A DNA stretch of 26,397 nucleotides from a virus (Duplodnaviria > Caudoviricetes), in the IMG/VR virus record IMGVR_UViG_3300033067_000794, positions 1 to 26,397 of that record. One strand, written 5' to 3'. The notes beneath the pieces are model-generated. The model was not told the origin of the DNA. It did no database searches and saw nothing but the letters and a program-made list of their open reading frames with translations. This document shows, piece after piece, positions 1 to 24,573 of the stretch; the first letter of the stretch is position 1, and each line of letters opens with the position of its first letter. A program made the position numbers and the translations under genes.

Positions 1-2266
1 GCCACTCCTTGAACTTATCCATAGGCATTTCAGTAATTCCACCGAATCCTTTCCATCCTTTAGAATAGTTCCGCAGGTACGCGGGTTTAGCCGCTCTGGC
101 CGTTGGATACCCGAGCATCACTTTATGCTCATCAAAATCCCCGGCGCCAGGGTTATTCTGGTCGACTACATATGCGACCTCGGCCGACTGTTCTTGCTTT
201 TTCGTTAGGTTTTTTGGGGTAAATACATCGAGGTTATCTTTGTCCGCCCCCTGCACGTTAGGGATATGCCCGTAGTTGTCCTTCATGGTGACAGACCATG
301 GATTTCCTTTCTCATCGACCCCCGAACGGACATCTCCGGCCTTGGTTTCCGTGGCAATATGAACCCCGCGGAAGTCCGACCCGATGACTGGGTACGCGCC
401 CTTCGACACTTCTTCCTCTGTTACTTGAGGCTGAAGGGCCGCGGCTTGGGCTACAGGGGCTAACGCTTCCCTTTCTTCTGATGGTTGCGTTTGCGGGGCT
501 GTGTTCTGGCTTTGGTCATTTATGATTCCTGTTTCTTGTGGTAAGGGTGCTTCGGGTGCGACCGGTTGTTGATTCCCCGGTCCGCTGATAATCTCTTGGC
601 CGCCTCGTGCGGGTTCTTGCTGTGCGAGATGTAAGTCATCGCCGCTATTCGTTTGGCTTCCTTCTCCGATTTGCCCTGCTTCTCCAGGGAATTCCTGATC
701 GCTACGTATTGCGCCGGCATCTTCGACCTCCTTAGTAAAGGGTTGACGCTCCGCAGGCAGGTATTCACTCAGAGCAGTATCTAAATCTTCGTCCGGGTGA
801 TCCTGTTCTGCTACGGCCGCATCCTGTAGCATCCTTCGAGAGACGATGGAATTTTCTCTGGCCGCTATTTGAGGCCCAGTTATCTGCTGCTCGGTGGCGC
901 TCAAAGCCGCCCGTTTAAATACGCCATCTGGTGCGGAGGAAAGTTGTTCTTTAATTTCGTCCGTAGCCTTCTCAACCGCTGTTTTTTCAGGGTAAACGGC
1001 GCTTTTAAGCTTCTCAAAAATAGCCGAAGGCGTATCGGTCGGATCATAGACCCCAGCTTTTATGGCCGCATCCTTCAAACTTTTAGTAACGACTGTTGGT
1101 ACGCCGCTGAGCTCCTGATACTTCTGGAATCTGTCTACCACGCTTTTTATTTCCGGATCGACTTCCGCTACGGCCGGTTCGACCGAAGTCGGGGCTTCTG
1201 GGATAACAGCATTTTCCGGTTCTTCTTGTAAATTGGTTTGCGCTTGTTGCGCCTCGGTTCCCGGAATAGCAACGTTTTCCGGTTCTTCTTGTAAATTGGT
1301 TTGCGCTTGTTGCGCCGCGGTTACTTCGGCATCCTCTACAGGAGGCGGTAAATTTCCCCCTGCTATAGCGCCAACCGGTGCTCCCATTCCGGCTCCGGTA
1401 ACTAACCCTAGAGCGGCGGCATTGCCGACCCCTTCGCCAAGAGGTTTTTCCAGTGCCAAATTAGAGGCCGCTTGTTCCTGACCGGACTGTGCTGCTTCTT
1501 GCGCTCCTTCAACGACTCCGCCTTCTACGCCTTTCCTAATAGCTCCTTTACCGGTAGCTGCAAGTGCCGGATTATCGAGTAGTAACGTATTTACGTCCCC
1601 AACGCCTAACTTCTGCGCCGCTTTACCAAAACCGTGCGTAAGGGCTCCGGTTAGCGCTCCGCTAGCGGCTTGTAACAGGGACTGCTTAGGAGTCAACAAC
1701 CCGCTTTCTGTTTGTTGCCGTAATTGTTCAGTATTTTGCCCGGCGGTAACCGCACCTTCTCCAATAGGGCCTGCGGCCAATGACGAGAGTTTAGGGGCGT
1801 ACTTCATAAGCCCTTTGGCCAGGACTTGACCGCCGGCCATTGATGGTAGCGATTCGCCTATCGTGTGGGCGATAACCGACGGATTTTCTACCGCGGCCTT
1901 CAGTGTTGGGGCGAACCCTTCAGCTTCGTGTACCTTTTTAAAAGCCTCTTTCTGCGCTGGAGAATACTGTTCGCTTAATATTTCTTTGGCTCTTCGAAAA
2001 TCTACTCCGGCCTCCTGAACGGCTTTTCCAGCATGCCCCCCTGATACTAAATCGGCGGCGCCTACTAAAGTTTCAGGAACTCCGATAGCCCCTTTCAACG
2101 CGGTTATTCCAACGTCCTTAGCCCTATCTCCTAGTGTTGGTTCTGGAGTCGGTTCAGCCGGAGGAGCCGGGGCGTATTCGGCTAGCATCGAATCTAAATC
2201 TGGAGCCGCTTGTTTTGGAGCGTATTCGGCCAATGCCGAGTCTAGGTCTTGAATACTATCCGCCAT
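1..2266 (-). CDS. Giant internal virion/ejection polyvalent protein, N-terminal 755 codons (continues past left edge), with inorganic pyrophosphatase-like (InPase) domain at ~1-400
   Basis: Hand translation: ATG at 2266 (MADSIQDLDSALAEYAP...) with no stop down to position 2. Gly/Ala-rich N-terminus (NPSVIAHTIGESLPSM; EGAQEAAQSGQEQAASNLALEKPLGEGVGNAAALGLVTGAGMG). Ends in RSGVDEKGNPWSVTMKDNYGHIPNVQGADKDNLDVF...YVVDQ...FDEHKVMLGY...AYLRNYSKGWKGFGGITEMPMDKFKEW, the InPase signature of phage polyvalent proteins. Confidence 0.9.
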   Translation of the reverse strand, partial: MADSIQDLDSALAEYAPKQAAPDLDSMLAEYAPAPPAEPTPEPTLGDRAKDVGITALKGAIGVPETLVGAADLVSGGHAGKAVQEAGVDFRRAKEILSEQYSPAQKEAFKKVHEAEGFAPTLKAAVENPSVIAHTIGESLPSMAGGQVLAKGLMKYAPKLSSLAAGPIGEGAVTAGQNTEQLRQQTESGLLTPKQSLLQAASGALTGALTHGFGKAAQKLGVGDVNTLLLDNPALAATGKGAIRKGVEGGVVEGAQEAAQSGQEQAASNLALEKPLGEGVGNAAALGLVTGAGMGAPVGAIAGGNLPPPVEDAEVTAAQQAQTNLQEEPENVAIPGTEAQQAQTNLQEEPENAVIPEAPTSVEPAVAEVDPEIKSVVDRFQKYQELSGVPTVVTKSLKDAAIKAGVYDPTDTPSAIFEKLKSAVYPEKTAVEKATDEIKEQLSSAPDGVFKRAALSATEQQITGPQIAARENSIVSRRMLQDAAVAEQDHPDEDLDTALSEYLPAERQPFTKEVEDAGAIRSDQEFPGEAGQIGEGSQTNSGDDLHLAQQEPARGGQEIISGPGNQQPVAPEAPLPQETGIINDQSQNTAPQTQPSEEREALAPVAQAAALQPQVTEEEVSKGAYPVIGSDFRGVHIATETKAGDVRSGVDEKGNPWSVTMKDNYGHIPNVQGADKDNLDVFTPKNLTKKQEQSAEVAYVVDQNNPGAGDFDEHKVMLGYPTARAAKPAYLRNYSKGWKGFGGITEMPMDKFKEW
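460..519 (-). CDS. Possible 19-aa highly basic nested peptide MTKARTQPRKRNHQKKGKR
   Basis: ATG directly follows the TAA of the nested 66-aa ORF (TAAATG), in the same +1 frame, with AGGA 7 nt upstream; ends in TAG at 460-462. Confidence 0.25.
   Translation of the reverse strand: MTKARTQPRKRNHQKKGKR
520..720 (-). CDS. Small basic protein (66 aa) overprinted in the +1 frame of the giant ejection gene
   Basis: MPAQYVAIRNSLEKQGKSEKEAKRIAAMTY...; TAAGGAGGT lies 5 nt upstream of the ATG at 720; amphipathic helical pattern. Confidence 0.7.
   Translation of the reverse strand: MPAQYVAIRNSLEKQGKSEKEAKRIAAMTYISHSKNPHEAAKRLSADRGINNRSHPKHPYHKKQES
726..734 (-). promoter_or_regulatory. Perfect Shine-Dalgarno (TAAGGAGGT) for the nested gene
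   Basis: Minus strand reads TAAGGAGGT-CGAAG-ATG. Confidence 0.75.
1212..1316. repeat. In-frame tandem duplication, 42-nt exact core, 63-nt period (AQQAQTNLQEEPEN x2)
   Basis: ttttccggttcttcttgtaaattggtttgcgcttgttgcgcc at 1212-1253 and 1275-1316. Confidence 0.95.
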
Positions 2267-6328: not shown

Positions 6329-8182
6329 TTGAATACCGAAGACTTCGTAGAAAAGGCGCGGCTAATACATGCCGACAAATACCAATACCCGACTACTAAA
6401 TACATTAGATATGCGGGTAAAGTAGAAATATTGTGCCCGTCCCACGGGATCTTTTTGCAGCGTCCGGCGGACCATTTATACGGCAAAGGGTGCAAGAAAT
6501 GCGCCTCCCCGCTACACGACTCTACGGAAGGATTCATATCGAAAGCCATAGCCGTTCATGGCGACAAATATGATTATTCTGGAGCCGTTTACACCGGAAG
6601 CTCAAACAAAGTTAAAATCATTTGCGGTGAGCACGGGAGCTTTGAACAATCCGCTAGAGCACATCTCAAAGGGAAAGGGTGCCGCGCGTGTTCTATACGG
6701 GCGGCGGAAGGCCGACTAGACTCTAAAGAAGATTTTATCCGTAAAGCCATCGAAACCCACGGAGACCTATACTCTTATAACACTGTGGTGTATGCGACCT
6801 CAAAGAAAGAAGTTACTATCGTGTGTAGAAAACACGGAGCGTTTTCACAGAAACCTAACGCCCATATACAAGGGCACGGGTGCCCTAAGTGCTCTATTAT
6901 AAAGGTAGCCGACGGTAGAAGAACAGAGGTATCCTCGTATTTAGCTAAGGCGCGTGAATTTCATAATGATAAATACGACTATTCCAAAGTTAATTATGTG
7001 AACTCCGGGTCTAAAATAGAAATCGGGTGCCCTGAGCATGGGTACTTTCTGCAGTCAGCTTCACACCACCTATCCCACGGGTGTCGTAAATGCTCCTCAG
7101 ATAAGATCGGTAAAGCTCTGCTAGACACAAAAGAGGATTTCGTTAAGAAAGCTAAAGAGGTACACGGAGACTTGTATTCCTACGAGTATGTTAGGTACTC
7201 TAAATCGAACGTTAAAGTCAGTATAGAGTGCAAAAAACACGGCGTGTTTGAACAAGCCCCGTACAGCCACCTGAATGGGCAAGGGTGCAAACATTGCGCC
7301 AACGTCGGCCCTTCTAAAAATGAAATAGAAATGTCCGATTTTCTATCTTCATTGACCGCCGTAGTCCGCTCCGATAGAATCGCCATAGCGCCGCTAGAGA
7401 TAGATTGTCTGCTCCCAGATAGGAAAACGGGGGTAGAGTTTTGCGGGCTATATTTCCACTCAGCTAAATTTAGGGAGAGGGATTACCATATAAAAAAACT
7501 AACCGCCGCTAACGCTAAAGGGCTGCGCTTAGTGCAAGTATTTGAAGACGAATGGCTAGCTAAAAAAGATATCGTAAAATCCGTACTTAAGAATATAGTG
7601 TCCGCCCCATCCACCGTGCTATACGCTAGGAAAATGGAATTACGAGAGGTATCAAAAGAAGAGGCTAAGAATTTTTTAGACCTATACCACCTTCAGGGGC
7701 ACACCAAAGCCGAAATTAGACTAGGCCTGTATTCAGGGGAGGAACTAGCTATGTTGGCTACTTTTTCAGTCAATAGGCAAATCTTAGGTGATCTTAAACC
7801 CGGATGGGCCGAGTTAGTTCGGCTGTGCTCCGTACCCGGTACTAGAGTAGTCGGGGGATTCGCCAAACTTCTAAAGCGCTTCGTCTCGTGCTACAGCCCT
7901 TCCGGTATAAAAACGTACTGCGACTTGAGGTATTTTACCGGGAAGGGTTACGAGGCCGTTGGCTTTTCCAAAAGTCATGTCTCGGCGCCGGGATATTCTT
8001 ATGTGAAGAACCAAAGACGGTACTCTAGGTACGCCTATCAAAAGCACCTGTTGAAAAAGAAACTAGAGGTGTTCGACCCCAGCCTATCCGAGGAAGAGAA
8101 CATGACGGCTAATAATTTCCACCGGATATACGATTGCGGTAACATAGTGTACGTCATGGATTTAAGCCGTCGTAGCCAGTGA
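6329..8182 (+). CDS. Free-standing Hef-like homing endonuclease: 5 zinc-ribbon (DUF723-like) repeats + Vsr-like/PD-(D/E)xK-type nuclease + C-terminal GNAT-like domain
   Basis: Five units F..KA...H.DKY.Y....Y......V.I.C..HG.F.Q....HL...GC..C; EIDCLLP....GVEFCGLYFHS...YH..K...GLRLVQVFEDEW; C-terminal YARK..FLD.YHLQG..ELVRLC..VVGGFAKLL..TYCDLRY..G.GY...GF..RIYDCG. Antisense to the operon; GGAG 7 nt before a TTG start. Confidence 0.82.
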   Translation: MNTEDFVEKARLIHADKYQYPTTKYIRYAGKVEILCPSHGIFLQRPADHLYGKGCKKCASPLHDSTEGFISKAIAVHGDKYDYSGAVYTGSSNKVKIICGEHGSFEQSARAHLKGKGCRACSIRAAEGRLDSKEDFIRKAIETHGDLYSYNTVVYATSKKEVTIVCRKHGAFSQKPNAHIQGHGCPKCSIIKVADGRRTEVSSYLAKAREFHNDKYDYSKVNYVNSGSKIEIGCPEHGYFLQSASHHLSHGCRKCSSDKIGKALLDTKEDFVKKAKEVHGDLYSYEYVRYSKSNVKVSIECKKHGVFEQAPYSHLNGQGCKHCANVGPSKNEIEMSDFLSSLTAVVRSDRIAIAPLEIDCLLPDRKTGVEFCGLYFHSAKFRERDYHIKKLTAANAKGLRLVQVFEDEWLAKKDIVKSVLKNIVSAPSTVLYARKMELREVSKEEAKNFLDLYHLQGHTKAEIRLGLYSGEELAMLATFSVNRQILGDLKPGWAELVRLCSVPGTRVVGGFAKLLKRFVSCYSPSGIKTYCDLRYFTGKGYEAVGFSKSHVSAPGYSYVKNQRRYSRYAYQKHLLKKKLEVFDPSLSEEENMTANNFHRIYDCGNIVYVMDLSRRSQ

Positions 8183-18086: not shown

Positions 18087-18641
18087 CTAATTATATCCTA
18101 GTCTTACTGATTTTTCCGCCCATTTATGGGCTTTTACCCTAAATAAATTACATTTTTTTACTTCAATGTCTGCTCGGGCGGCTTCCTCTTGAAGAAATCG
18201 TTCAGCCTCTTCTGAAAGTTCGCTTCCGTCGTCTCCGGGTCCGTCATTAAAAATACCGGCGGATTCTCTCGCAGTACTTTCGGTGGATTTGCAAGAAGAT
18301 TTTTTGGCTCCGGGGTCGTACAGCCTAGTAACGACAACAGGCTTAGACTTAAGAGCATCGATCTCTGATAGGGCATTATAATATTCCACTTCGACTTTAG
18401 AAGTATCGTGTTCATATTTTTCCTTTAACGCTATGTATTCGGACTGCGCGGCGGCAATCTCTGTTACTCGTTGTAGTTCGGTCTTCGCAAGTTTTTCTTC
18501 ATAGACAGATTTCGTACTCTTTTCCCCGGCCATATAGGAGAATACGGCTATCGCGGAAGCCGCCGAGATTACGATGATAATCTTCGCAGCGAATAAATAC
18601 GCCTTGAATTGCGGGGGGATCAAACTGCTCAAAGAAAACAT
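18087..18641 (-). CDS. Rz: Inner-membrane spanin (Rz-like)
   Basis: Single N-terminal TM (IIIVISAASAIAVFSYMAG), coiled-coil, ELSEEAERFL..EAARAD motif, Cys residues; AGGAGG RBS; contains a nested lipoprotein gene. Confidence 0.88.
   Translation of the reverse strand: MFSLSSLIPPQFKAYLFAAKIIIVISAASAIAVFSYMAGEKSTKSVYEEKLAKTELQRVTEIAAAQSEYIALKEKYEHDTSKVEVEYYNALSEIDALKSKPVVVTRLYDPGAKKSSCKSTESTARESAGIFNDGPGDDGSELSEEAERFLQEEAARADIEVKKCNLFRVKAHKWAEKSVRLGYN
18158..18376 (-). CDS. Rz1: Outer-membrane spanin lipoprotein (Rz1-like), embedded in Rz
   Basis: MPYQRSMLLSLSLLSLLG-C lipobox followed by a Pro-rich mature part; fully nested in another frame; start at 18376 or 18358. Confidence 0.85.
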   Translation of the reverse strand: MPYQRSMLLSLSLLSLLGCTTPEPKNLLANPPKVLRENPPVFLMTDPETTEANFQKRLNDFFKRKPPEQTLK

Positions 18642-18653
18642 CTTATGCCCCTC

Positions 18654-21617
18654 CTATACACGATCCGCTTCGGCCTGAAGCTCGTTGTACAATCCCGCAT
18701 CCACACAGCAGTATACCCTCTTGACGCCCGCACTGAAGTTAACGAAAGCATCCCCGTTAGAAGATTGCTCGCAGATATCTCGGATAAAAGTTCCGTTATC
18801 TTTTAAATGCCCTTGACCGATCTCAAATTCATCCGCGGTTTCATGCTCAATTCCGTATATCATGGATTCATTCAGCGCATACCTATCAGAGATGGCCTTG
18901 TGACCCCTCATTTTACCTAAAAGGGTGAGTGCCCCGGTTCCGGTACTTGTAGTGGTTTCCGCTACTCTATTATGTGCCTTAGAAGGGACAAATTTTTGAG
19001 TCGTCATTTGTAAGCTGAAAACATCGCCGTCATCTCCGGCTCCGTCTATAAAGTCGACGGTTATCGAGTTTATAACCTCAAACGAAATCTCGTAAGAGTC
19101 ATTAGATGGCTCTACATAGTCCATAGTTATGCTGGATCCTGATACGGGAGCATCTACTAAAAAGTTATTAAAATCGGCATCGAACGCGGGGTTAGTCCCG
19201 GCGGTAAGAGCTAGCAGTCCGACAAAGTTAACTGTCATGGCAAAAGTGAACGTTACTAGTGCGGTCCAATTAAATCCGTCATTGGATCTATACGCAGTGA
19301 AATCGTTTCCGACTCTTCTTAGCCTAAGATAAACCGGAAACGTTTGTACCGCTGAGTTAGAATTGTATCGAGTAGTCGCCGCCCCTCCGGTAAATGACGC
19401 GCAGTAAAAGTGACGGGGATTAGCCGTTCCGTTGTACCCAAACGAAAATCTAACCGCTACGTTGGCGTCCTGCTCGATTAAAAAACCTAAACTTTGATTG
19501 GCTAAACTTGGGGTGCTGCCGATATACGTCTGTAGATCGAAATTTGTATTGGCCGATGCCTGTCTTAGCCTAGGGGCATTCAACGCGCCCGTAAAATAAT
19601 CATGATTGGTTCCGGCCGGAATAGATATGCGTAACGCCCCTCCGACTATAGCCCTAGAACAATTGCTTAATGGGTCCACGAAGGTCCAAAGACTCTGCAC
19701 CGTAGATGTAGCGAATACATCTGATACGACCCCGGACAATGAATTAGTCAGTATCGGATTGCGGACAAGTGTACTAACCGCTCCGGAAGAGTTTATGGAC
19801 TCTATTTTTGTATAATACCAAGTGGACGGAGATAGTCCTGGTATGGTGATGGCGTGTGAAGTTACCAAGGTGCTATCGACTACCGATCCTAATTCGTAGT
19901 CCTTCGTTAGGCCATAGTAAACCTTGGTAGTCGCAGCCCCGGATGTGATCCAAGAATACGCTACGGAGGTATTTGTCCTAACCGCAGATACGGCACTTAT
20001 ACCCTCTGGAACTGTTATGGTCGAGAACGTTAAATTGGCCGTTCCCACCCCATCATCCCCTGAGATAATATAATTATACGTAGTGCTGGGCAGAAGGTTG
20101 GTAAGGGTAACGCTGTGAGAAGTAGCTGCCACGGATTCCGATACGCTCTGCCCGTACGACTGGGTAGCGCCGTAATTCAAAACTGAGGTGGTGCTTCTGG
20201 TAGTGTTCCATGTTATCCGTTGAGAAGTAGCGGATAACGATGTGGAAACCACGTTAGTAATTTCCGATAACGTTCTGACGGTCTGATTTGAGCTTAAAGC
20301 GCTTCCGGAAGGGCTAGTACCACTAAGCCCAAAATTATACGTAGTGTACGGCGATAGCCCTGTTAGAACAACCGTGTGGTGCGCAACTAGTGTGGGTACA
20401 CTCACCGTTGTGCCGTAAGCTGTAGTTATTCCGTAATCGACCACAGAACTCATGGGGATTGAGGTATCCCAATCTACCGTGAAGGAGTTCTTTGTTATAT
20501 TAGAAATAGCGATGTTGCTGACAGCCTGGGCGGCGGTAGTTGTTTGGAATGTCCTATTAGCTTCCGTTCTAATGTTCCCGGAGGCATCTACACTTCTTAT
20601 CCGGTAATTGTATACCGTATTCGCCGCCAACCCAGTTAACGTAGCAGAATGCGTGGTGACTAAAGCGGAATTGGTGTACGTAGTCCCATAACTAGTCGTC
20701 ACTCCATAATCAATAATCGTAGTGGCGCTTTCATTGGTAGTAAAACCTATTTGCGCCGTAGATGAAGTGACGTTCTGAGTAACCGCGCTGACTACGGGCG
20801 GGTTTGTATCTGGCGCTCCACCTGGGTTAACCAGTGCGTAACCTCCGGCATCGTCATTACCCGCAATATCTTCAGCTATTTTTACGGTATCAATATAACC
20901 GCGCCGCCTAGATGTGGAGGAAATGTTATTAGGATCAGTAATAGGTATTTTCCAGTCCCATTTATAACACCCCATTGCAAACTGAGGTTTAATAAACCCT
21001 GTTGCTGGAAGGCAGGCCACATTTAATTGATCATCACGGCGATGAGTTTGAGCGGTTCCTGATGTAGGATAACGCGCTTGCTCAACACCGTCATACCATG
21101 TTCGAATGAATCCGGTATTTCCTTGTGAAACCTTTATCTGAATGACTAACGTGTGCCATACATTAAGGTCGATCGGCTTTGTCCATAACGTAACACCGCC
21201 AAATCGCCTAAATTGAAATTGGCCGTTAGAGTTCATGCAAAAAAATGGAGCCGTTGATAGTGCCGATTGTTGGCACGCCCCCACGCCCCAATTCGTCCAT
21301 GATGTTGGCACTTCATGTAATTGAATAGGCCAAGACTCGCCGCTTTTAACGTCTAGGTCCCATTCAGAGCGAATAAACGAAATGCCAACCCAATAAACTC
21401 GCTCAAATTCTGGCCAAAATATCTCCCTTACCTCAGTCCTATATTTAGTTCCAACATTACGATCTAGCACCATTTCATAGGACTTGGTTCCTTGGAATAC
21501 AGGAGAATTGGCTATAAATAATGTATTAGGGCCAGACACTGCTGTTAATGGCAGCGGGACTTTCTGCCCAACAGTTCCATTTTCCGCATTGAATGATGCT
21601 ACGAGAGTGGCTGTCAT
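18654..21617 (-). CDS. Multidomain receptor-binding/depolymerase protein (987 aa): polysaccharide-lyase-like jelly-roll, 4 FN3-like domains, ConA-like lectin domain, C-terminal fibre anchor domain
   Basis: YRTEV...YWVGIS...QLHE...WHTLVIQIK....GFIRTWYDG...MGCYK; four W.T...S.V.YG.T..YG.......H.V.LTGL.P.T.Y units; YLRLRRVGNDFTAYRSNDG.NW; NRVAETTTSTGTGALTL...EIGQG....R....SSNG...VNFSAG.K.V. Confidence 0.82.
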   Translation of the reverse strand: MTATLVASFNAENGTVGQKVPLPLTAVSGPNTLFIANSPVFQGTKSYEMVLDRNVGTKYRTEVREIFWPEFERVYWVGISFIRSEWDLDVKSGESWPIQLHEVPTSWTNWGVGACQQSALSTAPFFCMNSNGQFQFRRFGGVTLWTKPIDLNVWHTLVIQIKVSQGNTGFIRTWYDGVEQARYPTSGTAQTHRRDDQLNVACLPATGFIKPQFAMGCYKWDWKIPITDPNNISSTSRRRGYIDTVKIAEDIAGNDDAGGYALVNPGGAPDTNPPVVSAVTQNVTSSTAQIGFTTNESATTIIDYGVTTSYGTTYTNSALVTTHSATLTGLAANTVYNYRIRSVDASGNIRTEANRTFQTTTAAQAVSNIAISNITKNSFTVDWDTSIPMSSVVDYGITTAYGTTVSVPTLVAHHTVVLTGLSPYTTYNFGLSGTSPSGSALSSNQTVRTLSEITNVVSTSLSATSQRITWNTTRSTTSVLNYGATQSYGQSVSESVAATSHSVTLTNLLPSTTYNYIISGDDGVGTANLTFSTITVPEGISAVSAVRTNTSVAYSWITSGAATTKVYYGLTKDYELGSVVDSTLVTSHAITIPGLSPSTWYYTKIESINSSGAVSTLVRNPILTNSLSGVVSDVFATSTVQSLWTFVDPLSNCSRAIVGGALRISIPAGTNHDYFTGALNAPRLRQASANTNFDLQTYIGSTPSLANQSLGFLIEQDANVAVRFSFGYNGTANPRHFYCASFTGGAATTRYNSNSAVQTFPVYLRLRRVGNDFTAYRSNDGFNWTALVTFTFAMTVNFVGLLALTAGTNPAFDADFNNFLVDAPVSGSSITMDYVEPSNDSYEISFEVINSITVDFIDGAGDDGDVFSLQMTTQKFVPSKAHNRVAETTTSTGTGALTLLGKMRGHKAISDRYALNESMIYGIEHETADEFEIGQGHLKDNGTFIRDICEQSSNGDAFVNFSAGVKRVYCCVDAGLYNELQAEADRV

Positions 21618-22093: not shown

Positions 22094-22771
22094 TTATAGA
22101 AGTATCTTGACGCCGTGCGCCGTTATCGGAAGAACTAACATCCAATTGTCATTTTTGATTAATGTAGAAAAGGTATCTGTCCGATAAACAGTCGAGTGTA
22201 GTGCAGGGTTAGCGGCGGTTTTTAACCAATCCCCCCTAGTCTTGACATACTCTCTTACCCATTCTTTTTCAGTACCGCCGTTAGCCGGTATAGGCTCTGG
22301 AAATTTATTCCGTAACCAAGAGGGAACTGAACCGCTATGTATAAACGAATCGTAAATCACTAAAGCCGATAAGGGGAGAAAAAATAAATTATCATCGGCC
22401 CATTTCATAGCGGGATTAAAATACTGTTCTTCGAATATTTTATCCTGGCATCGCCGCATAATAGGATCCGTCCCCGCCGCTTTTAGCAGCCTTCTGAACT
22501 CTAAATCAGTATACAGCGTCCATTTTTTTATTGAGGGTATATACCTCTGAAGCTCATGAGAATATGCCCCGAATTGTTCGGCATACATCAAAAGAAGATC
22601 TTTCAATCCGGCATTTTCTGTAGTCTGCGATCTTCCGTATGTTATTTGTTTATGCCCGTCAGGGGCATCCGCAAAAATAGAAACAGCGCCGTAATCCCCC
22701 TCCGTATCACCCGTTTCAAACACATTAACGATGGCTACTATAGTTCGTTTTTGTTCTGCTGATAGCTTCAT
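22094..22771 (-). CDS. Endolysin candidate, GH46 chitosanase-like lysozyme-superfamily glycosidase
   Basis: IVNVFETG...DYG.V....D......ITYG..Q.T...DP.M..CQD..F...YF.PA...LVIYDSFIHSG; close to holin-like and spanin genes. Confidence 0.8.
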   Translation of the reverse strand: MKLSAEQKRTIVAIVNVFETGDTEGDYGAVSIFADAPDGHKQITYGRSQTTENAGLKDLLLMYAEQFGAYSHELQRYIPSIKKWTLYTDLEFRRLLKAAGTDPIMRRCQDKIFEEQYFNPAMKWADDNLFFLPLSALVIYDSFIHSGSVPSWLRNKFPEPIPANGGTEKEWVREYVKTRGDWLKTAANPALHSTVYRTDTFSTLIKNDNWMLVLPITAHGVKILL

Positions 22772-23158: not shown

Positions 23159-23407
23159 GTTATTAAGCCCTGCTAAGCCGGTCTCTTGCCAGTTAAACTC
23201 AGTATGCGCCGGCATGAGCGAGAATTCTGCCGCAAATAGAGCATAAATAGCTTTCAATGTCGCCGGCCTATTGCCTTGAATGTATGCCCATAAGCTGCAA
23301 TCAATCGTTTTGTCGGCATAGCGTTTTTTAACATAGTGAGCGCAAGCGCCGAGAATGCCGATAGTCATAAATAATACTAATATTGCAAATTGAGTTATTA
23401 AGTTCAT
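23159..23407 (-). pseudogene. Truncated holin-like gene fused in frame to the secreted protein
   Basis: GILGACAHYVKK...CSLWAYI.GNRPATL.A aligns by eye with LIGLLYHYYEKK...DTLREYL.HDKRSTL.A of the 107-aa gene but lacks its final AGYGLDNMFNK helix. Confidence 0.6.
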
Positions 23408-24573
23408 TTTAAATGCTGCAATGCACGTTGAAAATTACCAGAATCATATACTGCTTTACAAGCCAACGTAATGGGGTGCGTTCCATCAATCGTATATAAA
23501 TTATTCCAGATTCCAGAATCTCTTGCCGTCTCCATGACATCAGCCACTTCTACAAATCCACAATTGCCATGATTGCCTTTGCGGATATCTGCATTAACAA
23601 GCACTCTCTGAGCATTACTTGCCCCTGTCGTCTGATTGCCTGGCGTTGCGAATCCGTCAGTTGATGATGCTAGTGGTGGTATTGTTGATCTATAAAATGG
23701 TTTTCCTGGAAATAACGCACGAACAGTAAGGGTGTCAGTTTTAATTTGTGCTGCCGTTCTTGAGGCACCAAGATCATTGACGCCATGCTGGCAAAATACA
23801 TGGCTGTAGTATTTAGCTAATGTTAATCTTTTGGCTCCTTGCCCTGTCGCCCAATTCTGTATCTTTTCACCACCAACGCCATAATTACCCGTTGCAAATA
23901 TTGATCCTAAAGACCTGCCGACTTCACCAACCAATAACAAAATATCATTCGGACTATCATACCCGTATCCTATTCTGGAATCGCCCAATAGGAAAAAAGT
24001 TACTTCATCAGTCATGCCGATAATAGCAGAAGGCATAAATTTATTTGATGGGTCATTGGGACTTGGAATTGTGCCAACGCCCATAGAAATATCATCTAAC
24101 GCCGTTGCGCTAAATTTGCACCTTTCAAGATTTGATGGGGTAGTTCCATTATTAGATATTAAAATTCCGCCGGTTTCGTTATATTGATAAGACCAAATTA
24201 AGAATATTTCACCTTTTTTTATTGTCAAATTAATTGGGTCAGAAATAAGCTCATTACCTGGGGTTATTGTTCCTGTATCGCTTCCTGAAAACGTAACGCG
24301 AGTAAAAACACCTGTAGGGTACTCTATGCTTACTCTAATGTCATGACTTACAGCATAATCCACTTCGCTTACGCCGCCGAATGTTGCTGGATTTTGTAAG
24401 CGCCAACCGCAATAGACCAGCTGAAACCAGGAAACATTAGTCATCATATTGTGCTGCGTTACAGACTGGCAATATTTATAACTTGCATTTTCTGAATGTG
24501 AAGGGTTAATTCTTGATGCTACTGCGCCTAAGTATTTTCCTGACGTTGTTCCTATTGATGTAAAAATTCCCAT
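23404..24573 (-). CDS. SGNH/GDSL hydrolase-domain protein (389 aa), probable tail-associated esterase/deacetylase
   Basis: Blocks LLGDSR, NYGVGG, HGVND, DGTHP after a beta-rich N-terminal domain; GAGGA RBS; AT-rich. Confidence 0.85.
   Translation of the reverse strand: MGIFTSIGTTSGKYLGAVASRINPSHSENASYKYCQSVTQHNMMTNVSWFQLVYCGWRLQNPATFGGVSEVDYAVSHDIRVSIEYPTGVFTRVTFSGSDTGTITPGNELISDPINLTIKKGEIFLIWSYQYNETGGILISNNGTTPSNLERCKFSATALDDISMGVGTIPSPNDPSNKFMPSAIIGMTDEVTFFLLGDSRIGYGYDSPNDILLLVGEVGRSLGSIFATGNYGVGGEKIQNWATGQGAKRLTLAKYYSHVFCQHGVNDLGASRTAAQIKTDTLTVRALFPGKPFYRSTIPPLASSTDGFATPGNQTTGASNAQRVLVNADIRKGNHGNCGFVEVADVMETARDSGIWNNLYTIDGTHPITLACKAVYDSGNFQRALQHLK

Follow-up and report, generated by a model that had tools for sequence, protein, structure and literature searches.

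Overlapping genes of viruses have mostly been attributed to de novo overprinting. Genes nested in the +1 frame of a larger gene are already known from Rz/Rz1 of phage lambda, E within D of phiX174, and mycobacteriophage Patience. In lambda, the small gene lies wholly within the larger one, in the +1 frame and over a flexible linker; the authors of that account favoured an origin from separated genes, and in its available part a survey of 528 spanin pairs contained no family whose members were embedded in some cases and separated in others (PMC6139136). In phiX174, the overlap is likewise internal, on the same strand and in the +1 frame, and one of the two frames is disordered (PMC8227390, available part). 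In Patience, embedded out-of-frame ORFs having strong ribosome-binding sites were found by proteomics to be translated and, in the available text, were generally not conserved (PMC4324244). Polyvalent proteins carrying InPase, LPD38, and ddrB-ParB domains were described in PMC5512222, in the main text of which the words 'overlap' and 'disordered' are absent and 'nested' occurs twice, both times for a hairpin fold. A literature search restricted to freely accessible main texts found no account of small genes lying inside giant genes of phages.

The window, i.e., the whole stretch of DNA analysed here (26,397 nt), is a 26.4-kb linear virus record with its long genes on the minus strand, one of which is a giant gene enclosing a small one (Table 1). 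As in Rz/Rz1, the inner gene lies entirely within the outer one, uses another frame, and has its own start signal. According to the available account, however, Rz and Rz1 act together in one complex as membrane partners, Rz1 having a lipoprotein signal with Cys, whereas the gene described here belongs to a single soluble family occurring both nested and free, in hosts that are mostly unrelated, and its 66-aa product lacks both Cys and a hydrophobic signal. Unlike de novo genes of the phiX174 E type, as described in the available text, its inner frame is widespread, structured, and conserved, and it is the outer linker that is locally new; its conservation also distinguishes it from the embedded ORFs of Patience. 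Like the published polyvalent proteins, the giant of the window has an InPase domain and adjoins virion genes, and 8 other hosts of nested copies match LPD38, InPase, ddrB-ParB, helicase, or methyltransferase families.

The nested gene and its giant host in the window

Table 1. Features of the overlap and their positions in the window
Feature	Position	Strand	Description
Giant polyvalent/ejection-type gene	2..2266	minus	755 aa visible, cut by contig end; acidic linker over small gene
InPase domain (PF18823), giant residues 619-755	2..412	minus	E 2.3e-40; just downstream of overlap
Nested small gene	520..720	minus	66 aa, basic; helical hairpin (residues about 1-33) and variable basic tail; start ATG 720-718, stop TAA 522-520
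Shine-Dalgarno TAAGGAGGT	726..734	minus	5-nt spacer to ATG; codons 511-514 in host frame
99-nt deletion in relatives X2 and X6	601..699	minus	in frame for both genes; small-gene codons 8-40 gone

The small gene lies entirely within the ORF running from position 2266 to 2, in the +1 frame and over host codons 516-583. The net charge and pI of its product, in which the hairpin part is conserved and the tail variable, are +8 and 10.1, respectively, and those of the host peptide read from the same bases are -9 and 4.05, in agreement with the acidic linker that the first-pass annotation had described over the small gene. The 9-mer forming the Shine-Dalgarno (SD) sequence occurs only once in the window, counting both strands, and, at a spacing of 5 nt from the ATG, gives an anti-SD match longer than that at each of 22 other gene starts checked. 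Among 9 long minus-strand genes scanned, no other SD-led out-of-frame ORF of 35-120 aa was found; a search for internal promoters gave none near the small gene, and folding of the SD region gave z=-0.21. Contig X1, which may be the source sample itself, matched positions 1-1241 with zero differences and zero gaps, and contig X5 was gap-free across positions 441-900, by which a frameshift artefact at the nested ORF is ruled out.

The giant matched PHROG 30335 and the DarB-like PHROG 10089 (giant and virion PHROGs), and fits the polyvalent type by its InPase domain (PF18823), the one Pfam domain found in its visible 755 aa, within which the contig stops. It sits amid late and virion genes, with matches to virion structural, head closure, and decoration PHROGs upstream on the same strand. 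The small protein is likely to be translated on its own from the late mRNA that also encodes the giant, and may be highly expressed, as the first-pass annotation had proposed.

Elsewhere in the window, a 617-aa HNH/homing endonuclease-like gene (6329-8182, plus strand; PHROG 559, E 9e-155) sits midway through the structural operon and is encoded on the opposite strand. A 987-aa polysaccharide lyase with FN3 repeats (18654-21617), a GH46 hydrolase (22094-22771), and a GDSL esterase (23404-24573), all on the minus strand, have an Rz-like gene near them (18087-18641). The linker of the giant also contains a two-copy repeat at about 1224-1320, present in contig X2 in a shorter, replaced version.

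Free-standing and nested members of one family

As the first-pass annotation had proposed, homologs of the 66-aa protein were sought both as free-standing genes and in the +1 frame of other giants, and both forms were found. A single-sequence search recovered 6 called proteins, and a 19-sequence profile recovered 541 (25-128 aa, E<=1e-3). The family has a core of about 31 residues, in which P2, Y5, I8, G16, A26, and A27 were invariant across 124 aligned members, and after which comes a variable basic tail. An HMM built from the 124 members was scanned against the window and loci L001-L172 and gave 80 distinct copies (judged by the first 90 nt, some near-identical copies being left in), namely 26 nested copies including that of the window, 51 free-standing copies, 2 proteins of 108 aa (L037, L038), and 1 ambiguous copy on a short contig (L031). 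L031 was excluded from later counts, and L037 and L038 from the free counts. All of the nested copies were in the +1 frame (26/26), and the lengths of the host ORFs ranged from 593 to more than 2,900 codons. The hidden small gene claimed in the +1 frame of the giant, led by a strong SD, is thus borne out by homologs and by a conserved start, SD, and open +1 frame in other giants.

Later searches added four nested copies (L177, L189, L223, L224), making 30 in total with none in the +2 frame. L177, with the small gene intact, was found by a host-frame DNA pattern as the 1 true member among 15 stretches, the others being chance matches. L189 was reached through the InPase of the giant rather than through the small gene, and holds a divergent copy of 63 aa that has GGAGG and an in-frame insertion, and in which the start, SD, and frame are kept; it is the only one to carry the small gene among 32 InPase-bearing loci fetched through the giant (31 without). 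Application of a DNA pattern to MAG contigs gave 3 matches, 2 of them nested (L223, L224), and a protein-alignment scan of genome contigs yielded no family member. P0009, a 1831-aa repeat protein, was dropped as spurious. The small protein was the starting point of the searches, and one DNA pattern demanded a start codon, so that broken nested copies were under-sampled.

Past the family copy, additional SD-led basic +1 ORFs of 41-51 aa were seen in L066 (codon 801), L114 (codon 621), and L117 (codon 507); that of L066 nearly abuts the family copy and may be a second nested gene. Over 311 kb of giants (L189-L220 and the nested hosts), 44 SD-led out-of-frame ORFs of 35-120 aa were counted in the +1 frame and 5 in the +2 frame, most of them unvalidated.

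An AlphaFold2 model of the small protein (pLDDT 83) had helices at residues 3-14, 19-33, and 37-46 and no strand, the hairpin of the first two being confident. The hairpin also forms the N-terminal domain of YS40_168, a 361-aa protein of Thermus phage phiYS40 (L173:4001-5086), and of Gly/Lys-rich proteins of 174-178 aa (e.g., L008:5001-5522), and the 108-aa relatives L037 and L038 bear a sub-cutoff Rho_N-like tail. No named family was found for the small protein in Pfam, PHROG, or NCBIfam; only positions 1-44 of PHROG 32268 (unknown function) matched 10/10 members tested. The PDB sequence search gave a weak lead to double-stranded RNA-binding motifs over 14 residues (best E 0.013), the BFVD fold search gave no match at E<=0.001, and the VIA fold search was uninformative (best Z 4.3), ChaB not being among the matches listed. 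The likeness to ChaB that had been suggested for this protein is not supported. PF06150 matched 0/124 members at E<=0.1, with a control E. coli ChaB scoring 4.8e-25, and hhalign gave a probability of 0.05 over 3 columns; ChaB is small and mainly helical like the family, but according to the available part of PMC514712 it has a C-terminal beta sheet that is absent from the AlphaFold2 model. DUF7218 (PF23855) matched 8/124 members at E<=0.1 (best 0.0064, below the curated cutoff), with an ESM feature score of 0.83 and no match in its own genome; with regard to DUF7218 and the 108-aa Rho_N-like proteins, the family hairpin aligned to L037 with 97% probability.

Mean net charges were +9.4 for nested and +8.6 for free copies, and terminase, portal, or head genes were often found close to free copies, although the majority of the 141 neighbours scanned had no PHROG match. 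Because of this charge and context and the Rho_N-like fusion, the product may tentatively be assigned as an accessory of packaging or of the internal head that is made late, binds nucleic acid, and is non-essential, an assignment that we hold at somewhat less than even chances. Among the publications listed in a literature search, none gave virion-proteomics evidence for YS40_168 of phiYS40.

Selection on the two frames and loss of the core in close relatives

The codons of the 31-codon core were compared between the 26 nested copies and 43 free copies in register, after removal of 10 out-of-register copies. Identity in the small frame was 0.554 for nested and 0.560 for free copies, and in the host-type frame 0.356 and 0.266, respectively. 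The frame-specific comparison suggested by the first-pass annotation gave pN/pS values of 0.47 (nested) and 0.39 (free) in the small frame and of 1.16 and 1.31, respectively, in the host-type frame, these being uncorrected pairwise counts that are near saturation and not independent. Selection acts mainly on the small frame, which is the more conserved of the two in nested copies. An SD match of at least 5 nt preceded 21/26 nested starts, as against 140/1644 (8.5%) of the other +1 ATG or GTG codons in the same hosts, and the SD was absent from every search pattern; the remaining 5/26 nested copies were without a good SD.

The host frame over the small gene is open and linker-like. At sites where T in the third position makes no host stop, T was rarer in nested than in free copies whichever of the three GC bins was considered (13/82 vs 103/251, 23/177 vs 46/152, and 13/301 vs 117/644; p=3e-5, 1e-4, and 6e-10, respectively), and the host therefore stays open and linker-like through the avoidance of T in third positions. 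Absence of T at host-stop sites in nested copies (0/197) follows from the definition of nested. F, W, Y, and C together made up 0.5% of the overlap and 6.1% of the hosts. Since third-position T and these residues are depleted, the host frame is constrained as well, and needs an open, hydrophilic spacer but no particular sequence. In free copies, the host-type frame was open in 8-9/51 and the other frame in 10/51; because the other frame is open as often, the +1 rule is not accounted for by openness alone.

Among close relatives of the window, X5 keeps the SD core AAGGAGG and has another stop in place of the small-gene stop. In codons 1-40, 3/3 listed changes of X5 were synonymous in the small frame and non-synonymous in the host, and outside the overlap 10/17 listed changes fell at host third positions, a shift that by itself does not reach significance (p=0.078, with 24 of the 33 differences listed). 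X2 and X6, which come from two studies, share the same 99-nt deletion, and X2 additionally holds an undeleted piece (644-803). As the same in-frame deletion removed the core in both, the small gene is accessory and dispensable in this sister lineage, in which it has been lost, and the giant tolerates the loss of 33 linker residues. In the leftover tail of the deletion lineage, 4/6 listed changes fell at host third positions, which hints at relaxed constraint on the tail.

These data bear on whether the nested frame is expressed at all, and how. It might be that the giant protein alone is made and that the +1 frame merely accompanies a conserved motif of the host or is left over from a dead insertion, as the loss of the core from X2 and X6 and the frequency of SD-led +1 ORFs in giants (44 vs 5 in +2, see above) would allow. 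The equal conservation of the small frame in nested and free copies at a host pN/pS of about 1, the excess of SD at nested starts over the background, and the silence in the small frame of the listed X5 changes in codons 1-40 all argue against it, as does a host-frame profile that matched just 9 proteins, of which the 6 examined all keep an N/H-A pair spelling ATG-CC and the remaining 3 equal nested hosts in length; we regard it as very improbable. Still smaller is the probability of a programmed +1 frameshift, by which the segment would serve as the alternative basic C-terminus of a truncated giant. The same strand, the invariable +1 frame, and a small frame that is open for a few codons upstream of the ATG are compatible with it, but the first residue of the family is encoded by ATG or GTG in 26/26 nested copies, the small frame is closed within 16 codons upstream in 16/26, no slippery site common to the nested copies was seen, and their commonest common upstream hexamer is the SD itself (AAGGAG, 8/26). 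It is highly probable that the 66-codon ORF is a conserved small gene in dual coding with the giant.

Origin of the nested copies and what they mean

The hosts of the nested copies are mostly unrelated. With the overlap masked, 24/325 host pairs were linked by BLAST, forming 10 components, and the giants of the window and of L002 aligned over the overlap only. The overlap lies at positions varying from host codon 203 to 1168. Pfam matches in the 25 other hosts were LPD38 (three hosts), histidine phosphatase (two hosts), InPase, ddrB-ParB with GGDEF, SNF2-type helicases, and methyltransferase, 16 hosts being without any. In a tree of the 80 copies (50 columns, unrooted, bootstrap incompletely settled), nested and free copies were intermixed, with 18 changes between the two states (shuffled mean 22.9), at least 7 of them forced by starred branches. 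Nested copies are not monophyletic: they formed one clade in 0/200 bootstrap trees, and a single nested clade was rejected (AU p=0.000123). Repeated switching is shown by this short, unrooted alignment, though not its direction (gain or loss). The giants of L092 and L085 are orthologous (49-56% identity); in L092 the small gene lies inside the linker of the giant, and in L085, which has a different linker, it lies 23 nt past the stop of the giant. In the host of L051 (residues 449-563), L063/L067-like sequence turns L016-like across the overlap, so that the junction of a module exchange may be marked by the nested gene.

Since free copies are more numerous and more varied, the small gene is probably an older gene that was engulfed repeatedly by giants, rather than a new overprint. 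The term 'overprinted' used in the first-pass annotation is probably backwards, because the small frame is the widespread and conserved one and the host linker is the secondary frame. Classical overprinting would require a single de novo birth in the +1 linker frame of a giant, later escape of the free copies, and spread of the overlap by module shuffling. Internal +1 overlaps are the commonest product of overprinting according to the available part of PMC8227390, and one frame is common to 30/30 nested copies, the giants are mosaic (as in L051, from L067-like to L016-like across the overlap), the host-type frame is still open in a few free copies, and the tree is unrooted. Such a course is nevertheless improbable, given the 51 free against 26 nested copies, the varied contexts and fusions of the free ones (YS40_168 of phiYS40, the 108-aa Rho_N-like forms), and the rejection of a single nested clade; moreover, de novo frames are usually homolog-free and less ordered (PMC8227390, available part), a description that here fits the host linker, and the inner frame, with 541 homologs and 51 free copies, is not confined to the overlap. 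A chaperone role of the small protein for the giant ejection protein had also been suggested. A partnership of this kind, with nesting enforcing linkage as in Rz/Rz1, is the chief alternative to a nucleic-acid-binding role, and would agree with nesting being seen in giant genes only, with a free copy directly after the giant in L085 and others after genes of 1042 and 810 codons (L029 and L120, respectively), and with the pairing of an acidic host and a basic small protein. A dedicated chaperone is nevertheless unlikely, because few of the hosts are related and the majority of copies are free-standing: no domain is common to the hosts, 5/52 non-nested copies checked adjoin an ORF of at least 700 codons, and the giant persists in X2 and X6 when the core is deleted.

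We return to engulfment as the preferred reading. A copy with its ribosome-binding site would land in a giant gene's variable linker or be read through by it; third-position T would be purged, leaving no host stops or aromatics, and the host would read an acidic, disorder-type spacer. The small protein would be made late, alongside head, portal, and ejection proteins, and its Lys/Arg hairpin and tail would bind DNA or RNA, probably as an accessory of packaging or of the internal head. Judged from sequence, it is quite probable as a whole that a free-standing gene with its own SD and ATG was engulfed by giants and is independently translated, and that its product is the predicted non-essential helical-hairpin nucleic-acid binder.

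With one family occurring repeatedly in both states, the orthologous pair of L092 and L085, and a natural loss allele, the origin of a nested gene and the cost of dual coding become directly measurable. Gene callers would drop about a third of the copies with context (26/80), and seemingly conserved motifs in the linkers of giant proteins can be echoes of hidden genes. More generally, we lean towards the view that disordered linkers of giant ejection/polyvalent genes serve as landing sites where existing small genes are taken up whole, again and again, one family toggling in unrelated phages between the free and the +1-nested state with its third positions recoded into an acidic spacer of the host; recurrent capture, as opposed to de novo birth, may then be a route to gene overlaps that hides conserved late proteins from annotation.
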